Of a stretch of 64,000 nt of DNA, positions 1,701-25,519 are shown piece by piece; position 1 is the first letter of the stretch; each line of letters begins with the position of its first letter. Origin of the DNA: a virus. The notes beneath the pieces were generated by a model. That model worked only from the letters and a program-made list of their open reading frames with translations, made no database searches and was not told the DNA's origin. The position numbers and the translations under genes are program-made. Location: the IMG/VR virus record IMGVR_UViG_3300045135_001635. One strand, 5' to 3'.

Positions 1701-2408
1701 TTAGAAAGATGAGATATCTTCTAAAACCATTTCACGGAATTCTTCAGAGGTATCGCTCATATCAAATACATATGATACGGTACAACGCCAAGAATCTTCT
1801 GTTTCCGCTGCGTGATATAAAACTTTGTCTTGTTCAGTCCAAGAACCGAAATAAGCAGCTTTACAAGTCCACTTACCTTTAGGGTCTTCACACTTTACAA
1901 TCTCTTTTGTTTCAGGGTGAACATAAGAGAAGTGACCATCGCCACCTTCAGAATAACTGAAGATTAAGTTATATCCTGGAGCATTATGGTTGCTATGCCA
2001 CGAAATGAAGCCACCTGGAGGGTACACGGCACATAACGCATTATGCTTAACAGAAAGGAAATTCATCATTCTGGCGTTAAGGTCACTTAACTTATGTGTC
2101 AAATCACGCTTAAAGATTGGGTCTGCGTCTCTCTCAAAGAAAGTATGCGACTTATCAGCAAGCTTGAAGTTATAGCCAACAATCATATCAGGAAAGCCTT
2201 CGTGTCCAGCACCTTGGTCTTTAACATCCTGTAGATATTCCATACCCATCCAATGCGGGCGTTGGCGTTTATGTTCTTTTGCCGTTAAATGGCAATTCTT
2301 TTCGAAACCTTCAAGAGTATGTAATTTAGAATACTCATTTAAGATTTCAAGCAACTCAGGGTTATTAACCTCTACGTGCTTTAAGTATTGGTCGTTAATC
2401 TGTGTCAT
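1701..2408 (-). CDS. Putative 2OG-Fe(II)/cupin-type oxygenase
   Basis: YPPGGFISWHSN...LYHAAET..WRCTVSY layout of a double-stranded beta-helix oxygenase, with HxN in place of HxD. Confidence 0.6.
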   Translation of the reverse strand: MTQINDQYLKHVEVNNPELLEILNEYSKLHTLEGFEKNCHLTAKEHKRQRPHWMGMEYLQDVKDQGAGHEGFPDMIVGYNFKLADKSHTFFERDADPIFKRDLTHKLSDLNARMMNFLSVKHNALCAVYPPGGFISWHSNHNAPGYNLIFSYSEGGDGHFSYVHPETKEIVKCEDPKGKWTCKAAYFGSWTEQDKVLYHAAETEDSWRCTVSYVFDMSDTSEEFREMVLEDISSF

Positions 2409-3145
2409 ACGATTGGTTTATCCTTGTCTAGACCAGCCGAGAAGTGACGTAAGATAACTTCATCTTCAGGCTGAGTTCTTGCCCAGTTAAAAGCATTGTA
2501 ATAATTCCATCTTAAATCATCATCAAAGATTCCGATTTTAAGATCCTTATATTTTTCTTCTTTCTCAGTAAGCCACCATAGTGAAAATTGATCCCAACAT
2601 TTAAGGGAATCCGCATATCCTTCTGGCCACCAAGTATCATTCATTTGCTTATACGTTAGTTCCCACCAGTCTTGCATAAATTCGCGCACGATTGGTTTAG
2701 ACATATCATACAAACACACACCACCACAAAGAGTAAATTGAGCTTTACCTTCTGGCGTATCAAAATCACGTTCAGCATAAATGTAGGAGCGATCGTCAGT
2801 GAGTTCAGAGTAGACCATATCATAGTCTTTCATCTCATCCCAAACTTTAACGATATCTTCATGCTCACATTCCATATCAGCATCAATGTACATTGTTATA
2901 TCATATGGCGATTGAGCCATACCCCATAACTTAGCGCGATAATGGTCTTCACAAAAGATAACCGTATCGGCTACGTCATGACCACGTTCATCAATAAATC
3001 TTTCTTCGGTTACTAAACAAATGTTACAATCTTCGTAATAATCGCGAAGCGATTCCGCTAAGTTAAGCGCATACAAATAAAAGTTACGTTTGTGTGAACC
3101 AACGATTACAAAACCTTTGGTCTTTTCCATATTACTCATCTCCAA
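2405..3145 (-). CDS. GT-A fold glycosyltransferase
   Basis: SPYDITMYIDADM (DxD), GGVCLY, WDQFSL, RWN and late His motifs. Confidence 0.75.
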   Translation of the reverse strand: MEMSNMEKTKGFVIVGSHKRNFYLYALNLAESLRDYYEDCNICLVTEERFIDERGHDVADTVIFCEDHYRAKLWGMAQSPYDITMYIDADMECEHEDIVKVWDEMKDYDMVYSELTDDRSYIYAERDFDTPEGKAQFTLCGGVCLYDMSKPIVREFMQDWWELTYKQMNDTWWPEGYADSLKCWDQFSLWWLTEKEEKYKDLKIGIFDDDLRWNYYNAFNWARTQPEDEVILRHFSAGLDKDKPIV

Positions 3146-3578
3146 TCTGTTCTTGTAGAATCATAATTGAATATAAGTCAACTTCAATACGGCTTTTCGC
3201 ACGTCTCAGTTTAGACTTGAGTTTACGGTTTTTAGAATTCTTAATCTCTTCAACTTCAAAAGCTTCTAACTTATAGTTGAAAAGTTTCTCTAATTTACGA
3301 GCCTTTTCATGCTCGACTTCACGTTGCTTATGCTCTTCAGCTTCAGCTTTTTTACGTTCTTCACGATCAGTTGTTTCTTTATCTATTTGGGCTTCGCCAA
3401 CAGAGTCAACAACTTCGTTAAATAATTCGTTTTCGTTACCTTCTTTGTCGTGACGATTTAATTTCATCACTTGACGAGTAACACGACCAACGTCGTCTTC
3501 CATCTCTAAAATACAATTCAATTGGCTTCGGTCTTCATTTTCCCAAAACGCGTTATCTAACCATTTTCTATAGCTCAT
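3132..3578 (-). CDS. Hypothetical protein with charged coiled coil (possible fibre chaperone)
   Basis: 148-aa ORF with GGAG RBS, first gene after the giant fibre gene; function inferred from position only. Confidence 0.5.
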   Translation of the reverse strand: MSYRKWLDNAFWENEDRSQLNCILEMEDDVGRVTRQVMKLNRHDKEGNENELFNEVVDSVGEAQIDKETTDREERKKAEAEEHKQREVEHEKARKLEKLFNYKLEAFEVEEIKNSKNRKLKSKLRRAKSRIEVDLYSIMILQEQIGDE

Positions 3579-3656: not shown

Positions 3657-3685
3657 ATTATACAACATTCCTTAATCTATATCAA
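3657..3685 (-). promoter_or_regulatory. sigma70 promoter TTGATA-17-TATAAT
   Basis: Near-consensus hexamers with 17-nt spacing; overlaps the stop codon of the giant gene. Confidence 0.65.
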
Positions 3686-6600
3686 GAAATTCGTACATAT
3701 AATGTGTAAGTTTCTACAATTGAGAATGTAGGTTGTATTGTTGTTCCAACGTAGTTACCTACGAAAGCACGCGAATAGTTACCAACATAATCTCTCGCAT
3801 AGTTACCTACGAACTCACCAACATAATTACCGACATAGTTACCAGCATATGAAGATACGCGAGTTCTTGAGTAGTTATCTGTGTAAGCACTTGTACGTAA
3901 ACGTGAGTAAGCTGAAACACGAACTCGACTAAACGTATCAGTTGAGTTACGAGTATATTCACCAACGAAACCACGTGTGTAGTTACCGATGAAATCGCCT
4001 ACGAAGTCACGCGCATAGTTACCGACATACTCGCCAGCAAATCCACGAGTGTAGTTACCAGTAAAGTCACCAGCGTAGTTACGAGCATAGTTACCGATGA
4101 AATCACGAGCAAAGTTACCAGTGAAAGTACGGTTATATGTGCCAGTATATTCGCCAGCAAAACCACGTGAGTAAGTACCTGTATATTGACCAGAGAATCC
4201 ACGTGAGTAAGTACCAGTGTACTGACCAGAGAATCCGCGAGTGTATGTACCAGCATACGAACTTGGACGAGTTCTTGAATAATACTCAAAACGTGTGCGT
4301 AAGAAGTTACGTGAGTAATTTCCAACGAAGTCACGAGAGTAAGTACCAGTGTACTGACCAGAGAATCCGCGAGTGTATGTACCAGCATAAGTGCTAAAGC
4401 GTGAACGGTTGTAAGTACTAAAACGAGCACGAACAAAGTTACGCGAGTAATTACCAACATAATCACGTGAGTACGCACCAGTATATTCGCCTACGAAGCC
4501 ACGTGTATATGTTCCAGCATAAGTGCTGAAGCGAGCGCGGTTGTAAGAGCTTACACGGTTACGAGAGAAGTTACGTGAGTAATTTCCGGTATATGAGTTA
4601 GCATATGTGCCTGTATATTCGCCTACGAAGCCACGTGTATACGTTCCTGCGTAAGTACTTAAACGAGTACGAGCATAAGCAGATACTCTTGAACGAGTAT
4701 ACGCACGAGCATAGTTACCTGTATAAGTTGTCGCATATGTACCAGTATATTCACCAACGAAACCGCGAGCGTAAGTACCAGCATATGAACTTGCGCGTGA
4801 ACGAGCGTAAGCAGATACTCTTGAACGAGTATACGCACGGGCATAGTTACCTGTAAACGTACGATTATATGTTCCAGTATATTCGCCTACGAATCCACGG
4901 CTGTATGTACCAGCATATGAACTTGGACGTGAACGAGAATAAGCAGAAACACGAGTGCGAGTATAAGCACGAGCATAGTTACCAGCGAAAGCACGTGAGT
5001 AAGTACCAGTATATTGACCAGAGAATCCACGGCTATAAGCACCAGTGTATTGTCCAGAGAATCCACGGCTGTATGTACCAGTGTACTGACCAGAGAATCC
5101 ACGAGTGTAGTTACCAATATAGTTACCAGCAAAGTTACCAACGTAATTACCAATGAAGTTACCAGCATAGTTACGTGCGTAATTACCTGTATACGTTCTT
5201 GCATAGTTACCTACGAAGTCACCAGTAAACGTTGTTACACGGTCACGAGCATATGTGCTGTTACGAGTACGAGCGTATGCAGAAACACGTGTACGAGCGT
5301 AAGCACTGTAACGAGTACGAGCTGAAGTACGAGCGTATTCACCAACGAAGTTACCTGCGTATTCGCCAGCATATCCGCGAGCATAGTTACCTACGTAAGA
5401 CGCATTTCTTGTACGAGCATAAGCACTATAACGAGTTCTAGTCGAAGTACGAGTACTTAAACGAGTAAAGTCGCCGACATAGTTTGTTACACGAGTACGC
5501 GAGTAAGCTGAGTAACGAGTACGAGTAGAAGTACGAGTACTTAAACGAGTAAAGTCGCCAACATAGTTTGTTATACGAGTACGAGCGTAAGCGCTGTAAC
5601 GAGTACGAGTAGAAGTACGTGTTGATAAACGAGTATACTCACCAACAAAGTTACCTGTAAACGTAGTGACGCGATCACGGATGAAGTCGCCAACATAGTT
5701 TGTTATACGAGTACGCGAGTAAGCTGAGTAACGAGTACGAGCTGAAGTACGAGCTGATAAACGAGTATATTCGCCAACAAAGTTACCCGTAAACGTAGTG
5801 ACGCGATCACGGATGAAGTCGCCGACATAGTTTGTAATACGAGTACGCGAGTAAGCTGAGTAACGAGTACGAGCTGAAGTACGAGTACTTGTACGCGCAT
5901 AGTTACCAACAAAGTTGCCAGTGAAGTTTGTTACACGGTTACGAGTAAAGTCGCCGACATAGTTTGTAATACGAGTACGCGAGTAAGCTGAGTAACGAGT
6001 ACGTGTAGAAGTTCTTGTAGAAGTTCTTGCGTAGTTACCAACGAAGTCACCTGCGTAAGAACCAGTACGAGTATAATAACCAGTATTAGTTGAAGTACGT
6101 GTAGAAGTACGCGCATATTCACCTACGAAGTCACCTGCGTAGTACAATGGACGAGCATAGTTACCTGTGTAATATAATGTACGAGCGTAATTACCAACAA
6201 AGTTACCAGCATATACTAATGTACGAGCATAGTTACCTGTGTAATATAATGTACGAGCGTAATTACCAACAAAGTTACCAGCATATACTAATGGACGAGC
6301 ATAGTTACCAGTATAGTAAGCTGTACGAGCGTAATTACCAACAAAGTCGCCAGTATAGACTAATGTACGAGCATAGTTACCAGTGTAATACAATGTACGA
6401 GCATAGTTACCAGCGTAAGAAGCAGCGCGAGTACGAGTATACGTTGGATAGTAAGCACGATCACGAGCATACGTTGGGTAGTAAGCGCGTTCACGAGTAT
6501 ACGTTGGGTAGTAAGCACGATCACGAGCAAAACCTCTTTCTACAGCACGAGATCTTGTAAAGTCTGGATAGTAAGCACGATCACGAGCATACGTTGGAGC

Positions 6601-9600
6601 TGCGTGACGAGCACGAGTATATTCTAAGCCATAAACTCTATATCGAGCATATGTTGCTGTTCTACTGTAATATGCTGTACCAACAAAGTTACCAGTAAAG
6701 TAAGCTGTTGACGGCCAACCAGGATCTCCGCCCCAAGCTTGATAAGTATATGATCTTGTACTTGTACGAGTAGAAGTCCCTGTACCAGCATATGCTAATG
6801 TACGAGCATAGTTACCAGTATATGTCCCAGTACGAGTGTAATTACCTGTGTAATAAACGTTACGAGAATAGTTACCAGTGTAGTAAGCTGTACCGATATA
6901 GTTACCCGTAAAATATCTTGTACCGACAAAGTTACCAACATAATATCTTGTACCGGCATAATCGCCAGTGTAATAAGCTGTACGAGCATAGTTACCTGTG
7001 TAATATAATGTACGAGCATAGTCACCAGTATACGAAGCAGCACGGTCACGGGTATACGTTGGATAGTAAGCACGGTCACGAGCATAAGTCGGTGACGTTG
7101 TGTAGTCTGTGATACGAGTACGGGCATATGTCGGATAGTAAACACGACCACGAGTGTACGTCGGTGACGTTGTGTAGTTTGTTACACGGTCACGGGTATA
7201 CGTTGGATAGTAAGCACGGTCACGAGCATAAGTCGGTGACGTTGTGTAGTTTGTTACACGGTCACGGGTATACGTTGGATAGTAAGCACGGTCACGAGCA
7301 TAAGTCGGTGACGTTGTAGAAGTTCTTGTAGAAGTTCTTGCGTAGTTACCAACAAAGTCTCCAGCATAGTACAATGTACGAGTATATGCTAATGTACGTG
7401 TTGAAGTACGCGTAGAAGTACGAGCGTATTCACCAACAAAGTCTCCAGCATAATTACCTGCGAATCCACGAGCATAGTTACCAACAAAGTCGCCAGTAAA
7501 TGTCGTTGCGTAGTTACCTACGAAGTCACCAGCATAATCTGTGATACGAGTTCTTGCGTATTCACCAACAAAGTTACCAGCATAATTACCTGCGAATCCA
7601 CGAGAATAGTTACCAACAAAGTCGCCAGTAAATGTCGTTGCGTAGTTACCAACAAAGTTTCCTGCGTAATCAGTGATGCGAGTACGAGCATAATTACCAG
7701 TATATTCACCAGCAAAGTTACCAGCATATCCACGAGAATAGTTACCAACAAAGTCGCCAGTAAATGTCGTTGCGTAGTTACCAACAAAGTTTCCTGCGTA
7801 ATCTGTGATACGAGTACGAGCGTAATTACCAGTATATTCACCAGCAAAGTTTCCTGCGTATCCACGAGCGTAGTTACCAACGAAGTCGCCTACGAAATCG
7901 CGAGCGTAATTACCAGTATATTCACCAGCAAAGTTTCCTGCGTATCCACGAGCGTAGTTACCAACGAAGTCGCCTACGAAATCGCGAGCATAGTTACCTG
8001 TGTAATCACCAGCAAAGTTTCCTGCGTATCCACGAGCATAGTTACCTACGTAAGAAGCACCACGTGTACGAGCATAAGCTGAGTAACGAGTACGAGCTGA
8101 CGTACGTGTTGAGGTACGAGCATAATTACCAACGAAGTTACCAGCAAAACCACGAGCATAGTTGCCTACGAAGTTGCGTGAGTAATTTCCAACGAAGCCA
8201 CGAGCATAGTTACCAATAAAGTTACCAGCATAATCTGTGATACGAGTTCTAGCAAAAGTAGAAACGCGCGCACGAGAGAAAGCACCAGCAAAGTTAGTAA
8301 CACGATCACGAGTATAGTCTGTTACACGAGTACGACCATAATCAGCAGCGTATACAGAAACACGGTTACGTGAATATGTACCAGAATATGTGCTGATACG
8401 GTTACGTGAATATGTACCAGAGTAAGAAGAAACACGTGTTCTTGAGTAAGTACCAGCATAAGCTGAAACTCTTGAACGAGTAAAGTTACGTGAGTAATTT
8501 CCTAAGAACGAACGGCTGTAATTTCCAATGAAGTTACGAGCATAATTTCCGCTATACGTTGATATACGAGTACGAGCATATGTACCAGCGTAAGATGAAA
8601 CACGACCACGAGTAAAGTTACGTGAGTAATTACCTGTAAATCCGCGTGAATAGTTTCCTACGAATTGACGAGCATATGTTCCAACATAAGTTGATACGCG
8701 TGTACGAGCATATGTGCCTGTAAATGTAGAAACACGACCACGAGTAAAGTTACGGCTGTAATTACCAGTAAATCCGCGAGCATAGTTACCTACGAATCCT
8801 CGAGAGTATGTACCTGCGTAAGCAGAAACTCGTGTGCGAGCATACGTTCCAGAAAACGAGCTTGGGCGTGTACGAGTAAATTCACCAGCATAGTTCCCTA
8901 AGAAACCTCTTGTGTAGTTACCTACGAATTGACGAGCGTATTCACCAACATAAGTTGATACACGTGTACGTGAGTAAGTGCCAGAGAAAGCGCTTGTACG
9001 AGTACGTGTAAATTCGCCAGTATAGTTACCTACGAATTGACGAGCATAGTTCCCAGCAAAGGCACGAGCGTATTCGCCAGTATACGTTGAAACACGGTTA
9101 CGCGAGTAAGTACCAGAGAAAGCACTTGTACGAGTACGAGTAAATTCGCCAGCAAAATTACCAGTAAATGAACGAGCATAGTTACCGATGAAGTCACGTG
9201 AGTAATTACCAGTATACGTTGATACACGTGTACGTGAGTAAGTTCCAGTATACGTTGAAATACGGTTACGTGAGTAAGTACCAGTGTAAGTAGAAACACG
9301 GTTACGTGCGTATGTACCAGCATAAGCTGAAACACGACCACGAGCGTAAGTAGAAGGACGAGTGCGAGTAAAGAACCCAGCAAAGTCTGTAATACGGTTA
9401 CGAGTATAAACTGATACACGGTTACGTGCGTATGTACCAGCGAATACACCAGTAAACGCTTCTAAACGGTTACGTGTATAAGAAGAAATACGAGTACGAG
9501 CATAGTTACCGACGAAATCGCCAACGTATTCTCCCGCAAAACCTCTTGAATAGTTACCAGCAAAATCACGAGTGTAATTACCAACGTAATCACCAATGAA

Positions 9601-10485
9601 ATCCTGAGTAGTTGTACGCGTTGAAGTACGCGCGAACGCCGAACTACGTGTGCGAGCATAAGAAGAAACACGAGCACGAACATATGAACTGTTACGTGTA
9701 CGAGTGTAATCTATTTGCGCAGTAGTGCGTTGTGTATTGATTGCTGTACCTACAGCTTTCCAAGTTCCGGCATCAGTCGGTGCACCTTGCGCACTTGACC
9801 TTAATTGATATGAACCGATATTACCTGAAGTAGCACGTAGAGTTTTGATACGTTGACCCAATACTTCTTGGATCTCGTTATCTGTCATTTCTTGGAAACC
9901 GTCAAAGCCAGAACCGTCATAGCGGATCTTAACTGGACGAGTTGGGTTTACAACAGTCATTGCTGTACGAACCCAAATGTGGTAGTTTGTTACGCTTCCG
10001 TCACCACGTGTATCAGTGAATACATTCTCAATAAAGATTGTATAGTCTGAACCAGGAGTTGAAGATGCTAACTTGTATGTACCGATATAGTCATTTTCGA
10101 CCATATTTCCAAGAACACGATTAGCGAGGTTTGTTAAATCTTGGTCTACCATTTCGTAGAAACCAGGATTGTCACCTGCTTCGTAGTAACCCACAGGAAT
10201 GTTTACGCCACTTTCTACAGAAGGACCAGCAACTTGTTTTAGTGTGGTTGTTGTAGTTCCAGAAGTAATCTGTGATGCTGGGTGTGTACCAGTAGATTCG
10301 TTGAAAAATGTATCAACGTAAGTACCGACAGGAACACCAGCTGATAAAGTCAATGCGCCTACATCAGTAGGACTTAACATTGCTTGACCAACAGCATAAG
10401 CCAGATAGTTTTCTTCTAGTGGAGTGAATTCCTTCAGGTCACCATTCGAATTTAGTATTTTTAAAGGGATACTAGATGCTGACAC
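3682..10485 (-). CDS. Giant (2267 aa) Arg/Tyr/Gly/Thr-rich tetrapeptide-repeat virion fibre, predicted single long beta-hairpin
   Basis: GTG start with RBS and late promoter; about 255-aa globular N-domain, then about 1990 aa of [YFRS]-x-[GRST]-x tetrads mirror-arranged about WGGDPGWP; C-terminal strand ETYTLYVRIS. Confidence 0.8.
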   Translation of the reverse strand: MSASSIPLKILNSNGDLKEFTPLEENYLAYAVGQAMLSPTDVGALTLSAGVPVGTYVDTFFNESTGTHPASQITSGTTTTTLKQVAGPSVESGVNIPVGYYEAGDNPGFYEMVDQDLTNLANRVLGNMVENDYIGTYKLASSTPGSDYTIFIENVFTDTRGDGSVTNYHIWVRTAMTVVNPTRPVKIRYDGSGFDGFQEMTDNEIQEVLGQRIKTLRATSGNIGSYQLRSSAQGAPTDAGTWKAVGTAINTQRTTAQIDYTRTRNSSYVRARVSSYARTRSSAFARTSTRTTTQDFIGDYVGNYTRDFAGNYSRGFAGEYVGDFVGNYARTRISSYTRNRLEAFTGVFAGTYARNRVSVYTRNRITDFAGFFTRTRPSTYARGRVSAYAGTYARNRVSTYTGTYSRNRISTYTGTYSRTRVSTYTGNYSRDFIGNYARSFTGNFAGEFTRTRTSAFSGTYSRNRVSTYTGEYARAFAGNYARQFVGNYTGEFTRTRTSAFSGTYSRTRVSTYVGEYARQFVGNYTRGFLGNYAGEFTRTRPSSFSGTYARTRVSAYAGTYSRGFVGNYARGFTGNYSRNFTRGRVSTFTGTYARTRVSTYVGTYARQFVGNYSRGFTGNYSRNFTRGRVSSYAGTYARTRISTYSGNYARNFIGNYSRSFLGNYSRNFTRSRVSAYAGTYSRTRVSSYSGTYSRNRISTYSGTYSRNRVSVYAADYGRTRVTDYTRDRVTNFAGAFSRARVSTFARTRITDYAGNFIGNYARGFVGNYSRNFVGNYARGFAGNFVGNYARTSTRTSARTRYSAYARTRGASYVGNYARGYAGNFAGDYTGNYARDFVGDFVGNYARGYAGNFAGEYTGNYARDFVGDFVGNYARGYAGNFAGEYTGNYARTRITDYAGNFVGNYATTFTGDFVGNYSRGYAGNFAGEYTGNYARTRITDYAGNFVGNYATTFTGDFVGNYSRGFAGNYAGNFVGEYARTRITDYAGDFVGNYATTFTGDFVGNYARGFAGNYAGDFVGEYARTSTRTSTRTLAYTRTLYYAGDFVGNYARTSTRTSTTSPTYARDRAYYPTYTRDRVTNYTTSPTYARDRAYYPTYTRDRVTNYTTSPTYTRGRVYYPTYARTRITDYTTSPTYARDRAYYPTYTRDRAASYTGDYARTLYYTGNYARTAYYTGDYAGTRYYVGNFVGTRYFTGNYIGTAYYTGNYSRNVYYTGNYTRTGTYTGNYARTLAYAGTGTSTRTSTRSYTYQAWGGDPGWPSTAYFTGNFVGTAYYSRTATYARYRVYGLEYTRARHAAPTYARDRAYYPDFTRSRAVERGFARDRAYYPTYTRERAYYPTYARDRAYYPTYTRTRAASYAGNYARTLYYTGNYARTLVYTGDFVGNYARTAYYTGNYARPLVYAGNFVGNYARTLYYTGNYARTLVYAGNFVGNYARTLYYTGNYARPLYYAGDFVGEYARTSTRTSTNTGYYTRTGSYAGDFVGNYARTSTRTSTRTRYSAYSRTRITNYVGDFTRNRVTNFTGNFVGNYARTSTRTSARTRYSAYSRTRITNYVGDFIRDRVTTFTGNFVGEYTRLSARTSARTRYSAYSRTRITNYVGDFIRDRVTTFTGNFVGEYTRLSTRTSTRTRYSAYARTRITNYVGDFTRLSTRTSTRTRYSAYSRTRVTNYVGDFTRLSTRTSTRTRYSAYARTRNASYVGNYARGYAGEYAGNFVGEYARTSARTRYSAYARTRVSAYARTRNSTYARDRVTTFTGDFVGNYARTYTGNYARNYAGNFIGNYVGNFAGNYIGNYTRGFSGQYTGTYSRGFSGQYTGAYSRGFSGQYTGTYSRAFAGNYARAYTRTRVSAYSRSRPSSYAGTYSRGFVGEYTGTYNRTFTGNYARAYTRSRVSAYARSRASSYAGTYARGFVGEYTGTYATTYTGNYARAYTRSRVSAYARTRLSTYAGTYTRGFVGEYTGTYANSYTGNYSRNFSRNRVSSYNRARFSTYAGTYTRGFVGEYTGAYSRDYVGNYSRNFVRARFSTYNRSRFSTYAGTYTRGFSGQYTGTYSRDFVGNYSRNFLRTRFEYYSRTRPSSYAGTYTRGFSGQYTGTYSRGFSGQYTGTYSRGFAGEYTGTYNRTFTGNFARDFIGNYARNYAGDFTGNYTRGFAGEYVGNYARDFVGDFIGNYTRGFVGEYTRNSTDTFSRVRVSAYSRLRTSAYTDNYSRTRVSSYAGNYVGNYVGEFVGNYARDYVGNYSRAFVGNYVGTTIQPTFSIVETYTLYVRIS
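3742..9708 (-). repeat. 12-nt-periodic coding repeat array with nested 30/36/72/84/132-nt tandem units
   Basis: Visible tandem units, e.g. 72-nt units at about 6130-6420 and 7030-7320, and 132-nt units at about 5620-6000 and 7450-7830. Confidence 0.9.
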
Positions 10486-11201: not shown

Positions 11202-11951
11202 TTATTCTTGTGCGAGTAAAACTGCGCCCCAATTCGTATAATAATTTATTCTTGTTTCGCTAGAATTTGGATCATTATAATAAGTAGTCCAAACGTTCTG
11301 AGGTGCTGAAAAATTTTGATACGTATAATCTATATATTGTGAATAATAATCACCATTTGAGAAAAATGTGGATACTATACCTGCCATATTATAACTATAC
11401 GTAAAATATTCTATTTTAGACCAATCAAACTGAATCCAATCATTTTTATTAGTAGTTATTCTAGATATATCACCGCTACCATAACCACTCATAGAGTTAT
11501 GTGGTTTCAATGATGTAACTTGTAATTTAGAATTTACTTTTATAGTTCTACTATCAAAAGAAACTTCATTACCTGAAGTAAGAACTTTTAATCCATAATC
11601 TCCTACTGGTGTAACTTTACTCGCTAAATCTAATACATAATAATCTAAACTAATATTACTAAAATCAGCTTCCAATGGATATTTTTTATTACCAGAAGAT
11701 TTAAACGTTACAGAAGATAAAGTGCTGTCGTACTCTATAACTATATAATCTTTTTGATAGTTGCTTGTATTTCTATGTTTCGGTTTTATAAAAATTAATC
11801 TAGTTCTATTAGGATCAGTTCCAAGTCCAGTGATACTACTACCAGTACCTTTTTTTGTCACAACATAATTCACTAAACCTATCGTAGTGTCTATTTGTAC
11901 AATTTCATTTCCTGCTGCATCGAAAGATTTTACTTGTAATCCATATGACAT
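11202..11951 (-). CDS. Tail-tip/fibre-associated structural protein (duplicated YGL-x-V motif)
   Basis: MSYGLQV... and DYGLKV..GNEVSFDSR repeats, like proteins that follow gpJ-type tips. Confidence 0.55.
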   Translation of the reverse strand: MSYGLQVKSFDAAGNEIVQIDTTIGLVNYVVTKKGTGSSITGLGTDPNRTRLIFIKPKHRNTSNYQKDYIVIEYDSTLSSVTFKSSGNKKYPLEADFSNISLDYYVLDLASKVTPVGDYGLKVLTSGNEVSFDSRTIKVNSKLQVTSLKPHNSMSGYGSGDISRITTNKNDWIQFDWSKIEYFTYSYNMAGIVSTFFSNGDYYSQYIDYTYQNFSAPQNVWTTYYNDPNSSETRINYYTNWGAVLLAQE

Positions 11952-12736
11952 TATGAAATCCTCACTGCTGTTACTTTTATTGTGACCGAAGTACTACTAC
12001 TATTAGTTATTGTAAGCGTATCACCAGAAGTTGAAAACGATATAAAATCAGACCTAGCTGTAGTTGAATATATAACTTTACTAGGATCACTTACATCTTT
12101 TATAGTAAGTGACACCGAACCATTCCCAGCAATATTTTGACTCGATAAATGCGCTAAGTTAAATAACTTAGTTTGTGGGTTAATTATTTCAGTTACACCA
12201 TCTGGACCATATACAACTAAACCATATTCAGCGTCAGAGCCTGAAGCAACATAAGTTGGACCAGAACCACTACCACCTGAAATCGTTCTTGTATATGTAC
12301 TTGTTCTGGTATAGTTTCTCGTATAGTCAGCAATATAGTTACCGATATAATCGCTAGAATATGTTCCAGTATAGTTACCTAAGAAATCTCTGGTATAATT
12401 ACCAATGAAATTACCAAGATAACTTCTGGTATATGTTCCAGTATAGTTACCGAGATATTCTCTTGAATAATTACCTGCGAAAAATCTTGAGTAATTACCG
12501 ATGAAATTTCCAGTAAAATCTCGGGTATAGTTACCGACATATCTTTCTTCACGAGGATCCGTGCGGTATCCAGCGTAAGATGATATTCTAGTAGAAGTAG
12601 CACCTGAATAATATGCCGTAAAAGATCTAGAACTTGTGTGCGTATCTCTTGTAAATGTTGCAGAGCTACCTACACCAACACGAGTAAGCGTACGAGTGTA
12701 TGTACTTTGTCTTGTATAACTTACTATTCTTGCCAT
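11951..12736 (-). CDS. Structural protein with short Y/F-x-G-N / Y-x-R repeat segment and C-terminal YGL domain
   Basis: Same tetrads as the giant protein, DPRE turn, ends VRIS like the giant protein. Confidence 0.65.
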   Translation of the reverse strand: MARIVSYTRQSTYTRTLTRVGVGSSATFTRDTHTSSRSFTAYYSGATSTRISSYAGYRTDPREERYVGNYTRDFTGNFIGNYSRFFAGNYSREYLGNYTGTYTRSYLGNFIGNYTRDFLGNYTGTYSSDYIGNYIADYTRNYTRTSTYTRTISGGSGSGPTYVASGSDAEYGLVVYGPDGVTEIINPQTKLFNLAHLSSQNIAGNGSVSLTIKDVSDPSKVIYSTTARSDFISFSTSGDTLTITNSSSTSVTIKVTAVRIS

Positions 12737-12746
12737 TATCTATCCC

Positions 12747-13208
12747 TTATTCAATAGCAGTTCCACCACCAGTGAAGAATGAAGTTCTTCCTTCAATGGT
12801 GCGAGCATAGGTTGATTCTCTTGTAAAACTTGTGCCGTAATATGCGGTAGAAGTAACGGTAAAGTACTCCGTTCTTACTTTGCTATAATAAGCGGTAAAC
12901 GATACTAATTTGTAAGTTGATTCTGTGAAGAACGCAAATGTCTCGCGAGTGTATGCCGAAGTACGGTCTACTAATTTATCACGAGTGTATGTACTTTCAC
13001 GGGCGCGAGTAAAATCTCTTGAGTAGTTACCGACGTAAGTATTTTCGCCATCTACAGTACTCGTACTCGTTCTATCAGTAGTATACTCGCCAGCATAATT
13101 TTTAGAGTAAGTACCGTCATAACTACCTGTGCGAGTTTTTACAAAATCGCGAGTAGATATAGCGGCGAAATCCAACACACGTGTAAATGATAAAGTATAA
13201 TCAGCCAT
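12747..13208 (-). CDS. Small Thr/Tyr/Arg-rich beta-repeat structural protein
   Basis: YAGEY, YVGNYSRDFTRARESTYTR tetrads related to the giant protein. Confidence 0.6.
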   Translation of the reverse strand: MADYTLSFTRVLDFAAISTRDFVKTRTGSYDGTYSKNYAGEYTTDRTSTSTVDGENTYVGNYSRDFTRARESTYTRDKLVDRTSAYTRETFAFFTESTYKLVSFTAYYSKVRTEYFTVTSTAYYGTSFTRESTYARTIEGRTSFFTGGGTAIE

Positions 13209-21702: not shown

Positions 21703-22974
21703 CTATTTTTTATTCTCGACTATTACGTCTAATTGTTGATTAGTTTTGGTGATACTCAAAATACTAAGATATTGAGATAATTTATTAACCCACCAAGGCA
21801 TGTCTTCGATGATTAAATGAGCGTTTCTTCCGTCTTGTAAGATTCTCATCGCAGGATACATAGCGATAGTCAAATAACCTTGAATCTTTATAGAGTCCGC
21901 AATTTGCTTAATAACATTATCAATGAGGTTCGGTTCAACGTGTTCTAATACATCTATACAAATTAAGAAGTCTTTTGGTGTTTGTACGCCCTCTTTACCC
22001 TCTATTCCTGGGTCGTATTCATATACTTTATACGGAGCGTCTTTTGGTATATTATTTTTAAAACTACTTGACCCACAACCATAATCTAAAACCTCTTTAG
22101 CGTCATTAGATAGTAGCCAGTTATGAAGTGTATCTATCATAGCGCCAGCACTTGTACCCCAGTGTTGAGTTTTATGTTCAGACTTTAGTAACGTCATATA
22201 ATCGTCAGATACAAGATGTTCTGTAAAGAATGCTGAGGAGTGTTTCAATTCTGTTTGATTAGGTAAATCTAAATTTTGATTAAGATCATCTAAATTTACA
22301 TAAGGAACTAAATCGTTTATTTTAGAATCAGGACTAATAGAGAAAATTTCAATACCGCGCTTCATACACTCTTTTGAGAACCAATCTAAATAATGATAAA
22401 GATGATTATATAAGTTCATATTCCAAGCGTCTTGGTCCTTCGTCATCTCTCGACCATCAAAGTACGACTTATCACTTACCTCAAAATCTACCCCAGCAAG
22501 ATAAATCTTTTTAAATCCCATATGTAACATAATGTTCATCGTAGTAGAGAAAACGTTCTTTTCCCATATAATGTTCTCACTTTCGGGCGAAGCGCATTCA
22601 AATATATCCATAGGTTCTTTTGTAGGGAACATGTTTCCAAAATATGTAAATGGATATTCGTATAGTTTACGACCGTCAAGAATACGTTCGTGTAAACCAC
22701 CTCTTAGAATTTTAGGGAAAGATTCTTTATATACATGTTCGTCATAGCAAGAAGGTTCATCCATTCCAACCCAAATATCAGGGCGAACTTTAGGATAAGT
22801 TGTATTGACTCCGACAACAGTTTTCCCTGAACCCGATAATTTTGAAATGTCGATTTTATTTAATGAAGGACCACCGCCGACGAATATTCCGACATTCATA
22901 TTTTCTTCTACATACGACTCAAGAAATTTCCAACTGTTTCCGTTATGATACATTAATGGTGTACGTTTAGACAT
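21703..22974 (-). CDS. DUF115/Maf-like glycosyltransferase fused to class I SAM methyltransferase
   Basis: GGGPSL..VGVN..PDIWVGMD..MGFKKIYLAGVDF in the N-half; VLDYGCG and DVLEHVEP in the C-half. Confidence 0.75.
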   Translation of the reverse strand: MSKRTPLMYHNGNSWKFLESYVEENMNVGIFVGGGPSLNKIDISKLSGSGKTVVGVNTTYPKVRPDIWVGMDEPSCYDEHVYKESFPKILRGGLHERILDGRKLYEYPFTYFGNMFPTKEPMDIFECASPESENIIWEKNVFSTTMNIMLHMGFKKIYLAGVDFEVSDKSYFDGREMTKDQDAWNMNLYNHLYHYLDWFSKECMKRGIEIFSISPDSKINDLVPYVNLDDLNQNLDLPNQTELKHSSAFFTEHLVSDDYMTLLKSEHKTQHWGTSAGAMIDTLHNWLLSNDAKEVLDYGCGSSSFKNNIPKDAPYKVYEYDPGIEGKEGVQTPKDFLICIDVLEHVEPNLIDNVIKQIADSIKIQGYLTIAMYPAMRILQDGRNAHLIIEDMPWWVNKLSQYLSILSITKTNQQLDVIVENKK

Positions 22975-23026: not shown

Positions 23027-25519
23027 TTATAAATTACCCAACTTCACCCTGAGTTTTCCGCCAGCATCGTAGATTGTAATGTTATCACCGCCAAATTCTA
23101 TTCTCGCGCCAGAATCAGCAGTATTACGTAATCCGTTAAGACTTAATATACCGCCGGAGTTAGTTGTAACTTCAGTGAAAGTCTTATCAGCTGTACCATT
23201 ATAGTCAACACCTTGATATTGGAATACTCTACCAGTTTGTATATGCCAATAAGTGTCGTGTTTTAATAAAACATTTTCACCTCTAAATTGGCGTATAATA
23301 TCTGATTTAGAATTAGTACCAGTATCAGAATTAACTGTAGCGTCTGTATCAAAAACTATCGCATTACCAGCTGAACCCATAGGACCAGAAGGACCGATTG
23401 TACCTGTAGGACCTTTTGACCCAGGATTACCGCGACTACCGCGAGGACCAGCCGAACCACGAGGACCTTGCGTACCTTGTGGTCCTTGAGTACCCCTGAT
23501 ACCAGTAGGACCAGCCGAACCACGAGGACCTTGCGTACCTTGTGGTCCTTGAGTACCCCTGATACCAGTAGGACCAGCCGAACCACGAGGACCTTGAGTA
23601 CCTTGAGGACCAGAAGGACCTCTGATACCAGTAGGACCAGCCGAACCACGAGGACCTTGAGTACCTTGAGGACCAGAAGGACCTTGAATACCCGTCACAC
23701 CGCGAGGACCAATAGTACCTTTAGGACCTTGTGATCCTTGGATACCAGTTACACCGCGAGGACCAATAGTACCTTTAGGACCTTGTGTACCTTGCGGACC
23801 TTGAGATCCTTGAATACCAGTCGCGCCACGAGGACCTTGTGTACCTTGCGGACCGCGAGTACCTTGGATACCTTGAGAACCTTGAATACCAGTCGCGCCA
23901 CGAGGACCCTGAGTACCTTTAGGACCCTGAGTACCACGAGGACCTTGAGAACCTTGAATACCAGTCGCGCCACGAGGACCCTGAGTACCTTTAGGACCCT
24001 GAGTACCACGAGGACCTTGAGAACCTTGCGGTCCAGAAGGACCTTGAATACCAGTCGCGCCACGAGGACCAATCGTACCTTTAGGACCCTGAGAACCTTG
24101 AATACCAGTCGCACCGCGAGGACCTTGTGTACCTTGCGGTCCTTGTGTTCCGCGAGGACCCTGAGTACCTTGAGGACCTTGAGTACCTTGAGGACCTTGA
24201 GTACCTTGAGGTCCACGAGTACCTTGCTTACCTTGAGGACCAGAAGGACCGACTATACCTGTTGGACCAACAACCCCCGTAGGACCTTCAATCCCACGAG
24301 TACCTCTTTGTCCAGTTTGACCCCGAGTACCTTGAGGTCCAGTAACGCCTTGGATACCAGTAGGACCTTGAATACCAGTAGGACCATTAATACCCGTGAC
24401 GCCTTGGATACCTTGAGTACCTTGAGGTCCTTGGGTTCCTTGAGGTCCTTGTGTTCCCTGAGGTCCAGTAACGCCTTGAATACCTTGCGTACCTTTAGGA
24501 CCCTGAGTACCACGAGGACCAGTAACGCCTTGGATACCAGTAACGCCTTGGATACCTTGAGTACCTTTAGGTCCTTGAGTTCCTTGAGGACCAGTAACGC
24601 CTTGAATTCCAGTAGGACCTTGAATACCCTGAGTACCTTTAGGACCCTGAGTTCCTTGCGGTCCTTGTGTTCCCTGAATACCAGTAACGCCTTGGATACC
24701 TTGAGTACCTTTAGGTCCTTGAGTTCCTTGAGGACCCGTAGGACCTTGGATACCAGTAACGCCTTGGATACCTTGAGTTCCCTTAGGACCCTGAGTTCCC
24801 TTAGGACCCTGAGTACCTTTAGGACCGATTGTACCCTGAATACCTTGAGAACCTTTAATACCTTGACTTCCGCGAGGACCCTGAGTACCTTGAGGACCAG
24901 TAACGCCTTGAATACCCTGAGTACCTTGCGGTCCTTGCGTGCCTTGAGGACCCTGAGTACCTTGAGGACCGATTGTACCTTGAGTTCCCTGAGGACCCTG
25001 AGTACCTTGCGGTCCTTGTTGTCCAGTAGGACCTACGATACCCTGAGTACCTTTAGGACCCTGAGTTCCTTGCGGTCCTTGTTGTCCAGTAGGACCTTGG
25101 ATACCTTGAGTTCCTTGCGGTCCTTGGATACCTTGAGTTCCTTGGGCACCCGTAGCACCGCGAGGACCAGTAGGACCTACGATACCATCAATACCAGCAA
25201 TACCCACGATAGTAGGTTCTTCCCACTCACTTTCAATCGTTTCATTATATGAAGGATTGCCGACGATTACGCGACGGCATTCCCAAAGAATAGGAAAAGA
25301 TTGGCTTAAATTTTCACCGAACGTAGTCCAAGAAATACCGTCAACGCTACCTGAAGGTGATGGGTTATTATACCCCCAACTATTTTTAGGTAGTTGACCC
25401 GATAAAAAATCAGAAGCGTCTGTTATAGACGCAACTGTTCTTGAGTAAATATATTCATAACCAACAGCATCGCTTACGTCTGTAAACGATATTGATGAAG
25501 ATGCGGTTAACGTCGGCAT
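23027..25519 (-). CDS. Collagen-like fibre protein (about 205 Gly-X-Y triplets)
   Basis: Continuous [15 protein letters not shown] triplets at about 23360-25205; C-terminus [15 protein letters not shown]. Confidence 0.9.

Follow-up and report, generated by a model that had tools for sequence, protein, structure and literature searches.

Predicted closure of a three-repeat base domain by the C-terminal strand of a giant phage protein

Does the last strand of a giant viral protein belong to the domain with which the protein begins? The question is raised by a gene in a 64,000-nucleotide (nt) stretch of viral DNA (IMG/VR virus record IMGVR_UViG_3300045135_001635; this whole stretch is referred to below as the window). 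The gene lies on the minus strand and encodes 2267 amino acids (aa). An initial annotation of positions 9700-10485, which correspond to residues 1-262 of the protein, proposed that the N-terminal domain (N-domain) is a globular base of three repeats, that one loop of the third repeat holds an array of about 2000 aa, and that the strand closing this loop is found only at the extreme C-terminus, so that the two ends of the chain meet and the array forms a giant hairpin. All the motifs that it quoted were found at their places in the minus-strand open reading frame (ORF). We consider it probable that about 256 N-terminal residues and the last 12 or so form one base domain, in which the hairpin turn of repeat 3 is expanded into an out-and-back insert. 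The gene and the segments assigned to the base are the following:

3682-10485, minus strand: whole gene, with base domain, predicted fold-back repeat array and closing strand; ORF and translation, 2267 aa, GTG start, stop codon at 3682-3684
10222-10470, minus strand: repeat 1, residues 6-88; a pair of short strands followed by a helix and by a hairpin whose loop has about 12 residues; from AlphaFold2 models and weak profile similarity
9964-10203, minus strand: repeat 2, residues 95-174; PVGYY..GFYEMVD helix, IGTYKL, hairpin FTDTR-GDG-SVTNYHIWVR with a short turn; from profile comparison (hhalign) and model
9718-9942, minus strand: N-terminal part of repeat 3, residues 182-256; PVKIRY..GFQEMTD helix, IGSYQLRSSAQGAP and first hairpin strand GTWKAVGTAINTQRT; from hhalign and two models
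3685-3729, minus strand (strand at 3691-3717): closing segment TFSIVETYTLYVRIS, residues 2253-2267, whose strand VETYTLYVR is predicted to complete the repeat-3 hairpin; from family conservation, profile alignment and models

The GTG start is correct, because relatives begin with MSASSIPLKI where the window protein reads VSASSIPLKI, and the sequences are colinear.

Internal repeats of the base domain

The sequence elements from which the repeats were recognised are LKEFT (residues 17-21) in repeat 1; GFYEMVD (residues 108-114, nt 10144-10164), IGTYKL (residues 134-139) and FTDTRGDGSVTNYHIWVR (residues 156-173, nt 9967-10020) in repeat 2; and GFQEMTD (residues 196-202), IGSYQL (residues 223-228) and AINTQRT (residues 248-254, nt 9724-9744) in repeat 3. 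An N-domain alignment of 149 sequences was cut into the three repeats, which were compared with one another as profiles (hhalign). Repeats 2 and 3 matched over 50 columns (probability 96%, E = 3.5e-9); judged from these profiles, their similarity exceeds chance. A failure of the repeats to align by profile, which had been named as an outcome that would speak against them, did not occur for this pair. Repeat 1 is more distant: it matched repeat 3 over 21 columns (E = 2e-5), covering the first hairpin and the start of the helix only, and repeat 2 with E = 2.4e-3. Despite this weaker sequence similarity, its order of elements matches that of repeats 2 and 3 in both AlphaFold2 models described below. 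The short hairpin turn noted in repeat 2 is a GDG turn; in one of these models (P0123) the hairpin strands of this repeat are E147-158 and E164-172.

The repeat-3 block is the most conserved part of the protein family. Residues G224, Y226, R229, G234, P236, G240, W242 and G246 are invariant in an alignment of 58 sequences, and the block always stands directly ahead of the array, even in relatives with extra domains upstream. Relatives hold whole extra domains between repeats 1 and 2 (about 300 residues in P0015) or between repeats 2 and 3 (FG-GAP and other domains, about 470 residues in all, in P0003 and P0004, proteins of 3884-3893 aa), from which we take the linkers between repeats to be loose. 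The three repeats of the proposed globular base thus stand, and the description is refined to a pseudo-threefold, beta-prism-like domain with loose linkers between its repeats. The extra domains found between base repeats in relatives (P0003, P0004, P0015, P0216) include FG-GAP, Laminin_G_3 and others.

The C-terminal closing strand

The repeat-2 hairpin closes with the strand VTNYHIWVR. The segment proposed as its counterpart in repeat 3, VETYTLYVR, occupies residues 2257-2265 (nt 3691-3717) and ends two residues ahead of the stop codon. When the last 14 residues of the protein were appended to repeat 3, its alignment with repeat 2 lengthened from 50 to 76 columns and the score rose from 46 to 52 (E = 3.9e-10). 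The extended alignment pairs VTNYHIWVR with VETYTLYVR (...DGSVTNYHIWVRT against ...FSIVETYTLYVRI). A profile of the C-terminal 17 residues, compared with the 262-column N-domain profile, gave a single match, to residues 161-174 (P = 0.03, a value limited by the short length of the segment); these residues are the closing strand of repeat 2, the very place where a match was predicted.

The closing motif (consensus ETYTLYVR) is terminal in 198 of the 258 relatives fetched, most commonly as TIETYTLYVR (79 times), and most of the relatives without a terminal motif look cut at contig ends or frameshifted. T2261, L2262 and Y2263 are invariant in the 58-sequence alignment. In P0015 (2238 aa) the motif reads IETYTLYCK and is internal, at residue 1816, with 414 residues after it; therefore it is the strand after the array that is conserved, not the end of the chain as such. 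P0216 likewise carries further sequence beyond the closing strand.

Structure prediction of natural short members

Two natural short members of the family were folded whole with family alignments (AlphaFold2). P0123 (292 aa) was modelled with a mean predicted local distance difference test score (pLDDT) of 86.8 and a predicted template modelling score of 0.83, and its three repeats have an equal order of elements (E, strand; H, helix):

P0123 repeat 1: E5-8, E13-16, H22-34, E50-61, E74-84
P0123 repeat 2: E98-102, E107-110, H113-129, E136-139, E147-158, E164-172
P0123 repeat 3: E183-189, E192-198, H201-219, E224-228, E240-262, E266-290

The third hairpin of this model is E240-262/E266-290, and the last two ten-residue blocks have pLDDT values of 92 and 95. 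P0025 (461 aa) belongs to the window protein's own subfamily, its N-domain being 54% identical. Its base was modelled with pLDDT 90-98, with long strands E250-284 and E422-459 and with pLDDT 93-98 over the last 20 residues. In both natural members, then, the second strand of the repeat-3 hairpin comes from the extreme C-terminus (pLDDT 92-98), as had been proposed for the window protein, and VETYTLYVR has its equivalent within the base of either model. Three viral-cluster models of the ESM Atlas superpose on the whole P0123 model with TM scores of 0.67-0.77. The profile alignment, the conserved flanks and the closed models of two natural relatives together support the meeting of the N- and C-ends and the hairpin topology.

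Distribution and length variation of the family

A phmmer search with residues 1-270 against 1.84 billion representatives returned 365 clusters (at 50% identity) at E ≤ 0.001 and 151 at E ≤ 1e-30, and word-indexed searches yielded members of 292-3893 aa. The N-domain of the window protein is 36-63% identical to those of its relatives. All hallmarks of the family are present in the window protein: the three-repeat N-domain, the SYQLRSSAQGAP..GTW block that immediately precedes the insert, and ETYTLYVR, which stops about two residues short of the end. In 138 complete members the distance from the repeat-3 block to the closing strand ranges from 35 to 3161 residues (median 338). The length of the segment enclosed by these fixed flanks therefore differs about 90-fold between members. 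The initial annotation had suggested a search for short homologues in which the repeat-3 loop holds a small insert, and such proteins do exist: P0123, the shortest member, is a complete gene flanked by others on its contig and has an insert of 35 residues, and numerous members of 363-450 aa come from contigs 80-95 kb long.

Neither the N-domain (Pfam, E ≤ 0.01) nor P0123 or P0025 matched a Pfam, PHROG or NCBIfam family, described families of trimeric tail fibres or tail spikes included, and the family profile found no chain at E ≤ 1 among PDB sequences. Literature searches returned nothing relevant on the ETYTLYVR motif, on phage C48C1 (a carrier of a homologue, see below) or on Tyr-rich beta-hairpin tail fibres of cyanophages. 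The protein is thus without a described family, a solved structure or a paper among the databases and literature searched.

Arms, tip and mirror symmetry of the insert

The array in the repeat-3 loop, estimated at about 2000 aa by the initial annotation, amounts to 1996 residues and can be divided as follows:

6736-9717, minus strand: predicted outgoing arm, residues 257-1250 (994 aa), built of 4-residue Tyr/Arg/Gly/Thr units; from translation and composition; tandem arrays of 36, 132, 84, 132, 72 and 30 nt
6712-6735, minus strand: tip motif WGGDPGWP, residues 1251-1258, a predicted turn; occurs once, its centre coinciding with the derived hairpin centre
3730-6711, minus strand: predicted returning arm, residues 1259-2252 (994 aa); as long as its outgoing counterpart, with mirrored tandem arrays of equal period

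The array is rich in Thr (15%), Tyr (14.5%), Arg (14%) and Gly (11.5%) and has a net charge of +187, while the tip consists largely of Trp, Gly and Pro.

The position of the turn can be derived without reference to the array. In the repeat-2 hairpin R160 pairs with V165 across the GDG turn, and the profiles equate R160 with R253 and V165 with V2257. For a repeat-3 hairpin that differs from this one only by its insert, the centre falls at (253 + 2257)/2 = 1255.0. The centre of WGGDPGWP, the sole non-repetitive, turn-like segment of the array, is 1254.5, and both arms, counted from the ends of the base strands, have 994 residues.

Tandem Repeats Finder identified six tandem arrays in the outgoing arm, each with a partner of equal period at the mirrored position of the returning arm (mirror point at about nt 6723.5):

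period 30 nt: outgoing 6842-7029, returning 6433-6527
period 72 nt: outgoing 7041-7317, returning 6146-6412
period 132 nt: outgoing 7417-7890, returning 5552-6012
period 84 nt: outgoing 7817-8050, returning 5411-5652
period 132 nt: outgoing 8450-9248, returning 4200-5045
period 36 nt: outgoing 9196-9336, returning 4142-4257

The partners differ in sequence, and the DNA of the gene contains no inverted repeats; therefore the symmetry belongs to the architecture of the protein. A DNA palindrome, considered as the source of the mirror pattern, was rejected on the same ground. At the level of sequence, the pattern suggests that duplications have been compensated between the two arms. Among 117 non-identical relatives, a proline lies within ±5 residues of the insert midpoint in 67 cases, against 28.5 expected at random, and proline positions are symmetric about the midpoint (the sequences are related, so these figures are not a clean probability).

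Two further observations concern the arrays of relatives. In P0015 (residues 520-1816) the arms are built of different units (YEGDFILD, ETNPTIQYF), and each type stands opposite the other rather than itself, which fits a heterotypic pairing of arm segments as far as the sequences allow it to be read. P0003 and P0004 have several non-repeat stretches within the array.

Proposed architecture

We propose that three tandem repeats, in each of which two short strands lead into a helix, another short strand and finally a long beta-hairpin, would build a pseudo-threefold, beta-prism-like base. The hairpin turn is short in repeats 1 and 2, and that of repeat 3 would have grown into the 1996-residue insert. 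The chain would leave the base after GTAINTQRT, run 994 residues outward, turn at WGGDPGWP, return over another 994 residues and re-enter the base as the strand VETYTLYVR. If a single small domain contains the two ends of an array of 2,000 residues, the chain between them has to lead away from that domain and back to it. What form it takes on the way is a separate matter. The arms may pair as a two-stranded antiparallel ribbon, which would measure about 330 nm if fully extended at about 3.3 Å per residue, and which would change in length through matched duplications in both arms. Such a ribbon would project from the baseplate, and its tip and its strongly basic, Tyr-rich surface (net +187) could contact the host envelope, the whole serving as a long-reach adhesion fibre. 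That the insert is indeed a single-chain, self-complementary two-stranded beta-ribbon of about 330 nm, its length evolving like that of an RNA stem by matched duplications, is in our estimate a possibility slightly short of an even chance.

Resemblance to known structures

Both models were compared exhaustively with known structures by VIA-align, with Z below 8 throughout. Five MABP (MVB12-associated beta-prism) domains came first in either case: those of MVB12B (3tow), the C-terminal domain of Photorhabdus Plu-MACPF (2qp2), Mpf2Ba1 (8b6v) and the P2 domain of MPEG1/perforin-2 (6sb1, 6u23). Their Z values were 6.3, 6.3, 6.1, 5.3 and 4.5 for the P0123 model (next match 3.2; root-mean-square deviation 3.6-5.3 Å) and 7.1, 6.2, 5.4, 4.7 and 3.9 for the P0025 model (next match 3.0), and the alignments, of 112-122 residues, reached the C-terminal strand. 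Foldseek searches of PDB and BFVD gave no match at E ≤ 0.001. With middling Z values and an empty Foldseek result, the resemblance of the models to MABP domains appears to be a likeness of shape, not membership.

The MABP fold is a three-sheet, pseudo-threefold beta-prism; the predicted base of the window protein is likewise pseudo-threefold and rich in beta structure. MABP domains can bind acidic lipids through a basic or hydrophobic loop, which maps to the elongated hairpin; in the window protein this part has a net charge of +187 and a Trp/Gly/Pro tip. MPEG1/perforin-2 extends an extraordinarily elongated, membrane-binding beta-hairpin from its MABP domain (PMC6753088), so that this domain and the predicted base have one elongated hairpin each. 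The differences are considerable. No sequence relation connects the two (no Pfam match, and no PDB sequence match at E ≤ 1); each base repeat here has an additional helix; the hairpin here comprises 35-3161 residues of periodic repeats, in contrast to a few tens of residues in MABP domains; and the setting is a phage baseplate module, whereas MABP domains occur in pore-forming or ESCRT proteins.

Among fibres, the nearest working analogue is the needle at the tip of the T4 long tail fibre (gp37), the likeness being one of mechanism and not of family membership. In that six-stranded antiparallel needle each of three chains reaches the receptor-binding head and then doubles back (Bartual et al. 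2010, as summarised in PMC9659904). The window protein would share an out-and-back chain, antiparallel shaft strands and a receptor-binding part at the turn, and in both systems a fibre-assembly chaperone gene adjoins. The out-and-back feature itself is seen here in the placing of both chain ends in one domain, the equal arms and the mirrored duplications. No sequence or fold match between gp37 and this protein was found. Whereas gp37 is an obligate trimer of six interwoven strands, the anchor here is a single-chain pseudo-threefold domain; the fold-back part of gp37, about 200 residues, is the C-terminal end of a conventional fibre and not an insert in the loop of some globular domain; and its two ends are not reunited in a single domain, as both ends would be here. 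The shaft, too, is different, with 4-residue Tyr/Arg/Gly units in the window protein. The gp37 shaft carries His-x-His iron sites; the array sequence has neither His-x-His periodicity nor metal sites of this type.

Two baseplate proteins that hold fibres, T4 gp11 (1el6) and the baseplate cup protein of Klebsiella phage KP1 (9f4b_FD), matched the models with Z values of 3.0 and 3.2 (P0123) and 3.0 and 2.9 (P0025). These scores do not rise above noise, and the aligned part of each protein is small (45-49 residues of repeat 3 with its hairpin, 16-27% identity), so that the resemblance may serve as a lead only. A beta-prism with one elongated hairpin is already known as a kind of structure; the predicted out-and-back chain would indicate a very long fold-back fibre of a kind for which no description exists so far.

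Alternative explanations

The mirror relation between the N- and C-terminal halves and the conservation of the closing strand would equally be predicted if closure took place in trans, the C-terminal strand completing repeat 3 of another copy. The product would be an antiparallel domain-swapped dimer or polymer; a base would sit at either end, and the ribbon would reach about twice the length of the hairpin. The structure predictions were made of monomers only. We nevertheless regard this arrangement as quite improbable: the exact midpoint holds a unique Gly/Pro turn motif, which a turn explains and a dimer dyad does not require; across the 117 relatives the midpoint is enriched in proline or occupied by a non-repeat tip domain; and P0123, with about 35 residues between its strands, is modelled as a simple hairpin at high confidence. 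Still more remote is the idea that ETYTLYVR serves another virion protein as a peptide for docking or for recognition by a chaperone and resembles the repeat-2 strand by coincidence; the ends would then not need to meet, and the array could be a fibre running one way or a sticky, disordered tether. Attachment or assembly is a frequent role of conserved peptides at the C-terminus, the gene immediately upstream encodes a fibre-assembly chaperone, and the profile match of the strand by itself is weak (P = 0.03). This explanation is made very improbable by the two AlphaFold2 models, which set the strand inside the base with pLDDT 92-98, by the continuation of the repeat 2/3 profile alignment through the ETYTLYVR strand, by the internal position of the motif in P0015, and by the equal arms and six mirrored duplications, which a one-way or disordered chain leaves unexplained.

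A different alternative accepts the closed base and concerns the shaft. Several hairpins could bundle, for example three of them into a six-stranded needle, or the small neighbouring proteins built of 4-residue repeats could add strands. A ribbon exposed on both faces over hundreds of nanometres would be unusual, the gp37 needle is a precedent (PMC9659904), YxGN / YxRx units also occur in the adjacent proteins of 261 and 153 aa, and the middle of the insert has no structure in the monomer model of P0025. Against these points, the base is a single-chain pseudo-threefold domain with one extended hairpin and no obvious threefold interface, and gp37-type His-x-His metal sites are absent from the array. 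We judge a shaft of either of these forms rather unlikely.

The reading that we prefer, a base closed in cis around an out-and-back insert, has points weighing against it. Closure in the window's own protein would follow by homology to the folded P0123 and P0025, and strand pairing in those models was read from the order of DSSP elements and from pLDDT rather than from coordinates or predicted aligned error. In P0025 the middle of the insert (residues 282-425) has a pLDDT of about 32, pairing far from the base not being predicted. A gapless fold-over of the array gave a broad optimum with many near-ties because the 4-residue period dominates, and its best centre was 1264.5. Counts across the family are phylogenetically non-independent. 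Presence in the virion, site of attachment and oligomeric state are predictions. Of the related self-comparisons, the gapless mirror autocorrelation of aromatic positions is a broad plateau that is not decisive alone, and its overlap-normalised version picks out local repeats only; when the array is folded over without gaps in its best register, Y/Y and G/R are the residue pairs that face each other most often.

Closure of the base provides evidence for a fold-back topology that is independent of how the repeats are read, and the natural minimal members (292-400 aa) make the architecture testable. Two short conserved flanks define a large family, so far without annotation, of proteins from marine T4-like phages. 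In the window protein, insertions and deletions would have to compensate each other across two distant segments. If the ribbon is real, a single chain can form a long fibre of tunable length in a manner that is new, which is of interest for host recognition by ocean phages and for protein design. Virus fibres would thereby gain a structural class, and no known beta-hairpin would come near this one in length; in the relatives of 3,900 residues it would be longer still.

Gene neighbourhood and type of phage

The genes ahead of the giant gene in transcription order encode gp25, gp6, a baseplate wedge subunit, a gp9/10-like protein, a collagen-repeat protein and a methyltransferase/MptE-like protein, then gp8, a 1773-aa DUF4815 protein, a 519-aa tail-tip fibre, three small proteins and, directly upstream of the giant gene, a tail-fibre assembly chaperone. 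By its gene content, this neighbourhood is recognisable as a T4-type baseplate and fibre module. A tblastn search with the N-domain matched a sole INPHARED record, phage C48C1 (Kyanoviridae), in which the homologue is a hypothetical protein of about 3,350 codons (10,044 nt) and the gene order is as in the window. The same order recurs in L003, a 95-kb metagenomic contig with a 390-aa member. A megablast of 5 kb around the gene against INPHARED gave no match. The protein would belong to the virion of a marine T4-like (Kyanoviridae-related) myophage as an appendage that its base domain fixes to the baseplate.

Several neighbouring genes deserve mention. After the giant gene come three coupled genes of 148, 246 and 235 aa (1701-3578, minus strand), for which no Pfam family reached the cut-off at E ≤ 0.01; genes of 152 and 247 aa come after the homologue in L003. 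Just upstream in the operon, the proteins of 261 aa (11951-12736, minus strand) and 153 aa (12747-13208, minus strand) consist mostly of YxGN / YxRx 4-residue units of the same kind as in the giant protein, and they might add strands to the fibre or cap it. The 261-aa protein shares a VRIS end, and a closing motif was considered there and rejected: its end reads TIKVTAVRIS and lacks the TYTLYVR strand. Among the baseplate genes, a 423-aa protein with MptE-like (PF01973) and methyltransferase domains (21703-22974, minus strand) could be an enzyme modifying virion proteins. An 830-aa protein of collagen-triple-helix repeats (23027-25519, minus strand; Pfam Collagen, E = 7e-98), encoded in a stretch with a local guanine-cytosine content of 0.48 against about 0.38, is probably another fibre of the same baseplate module.

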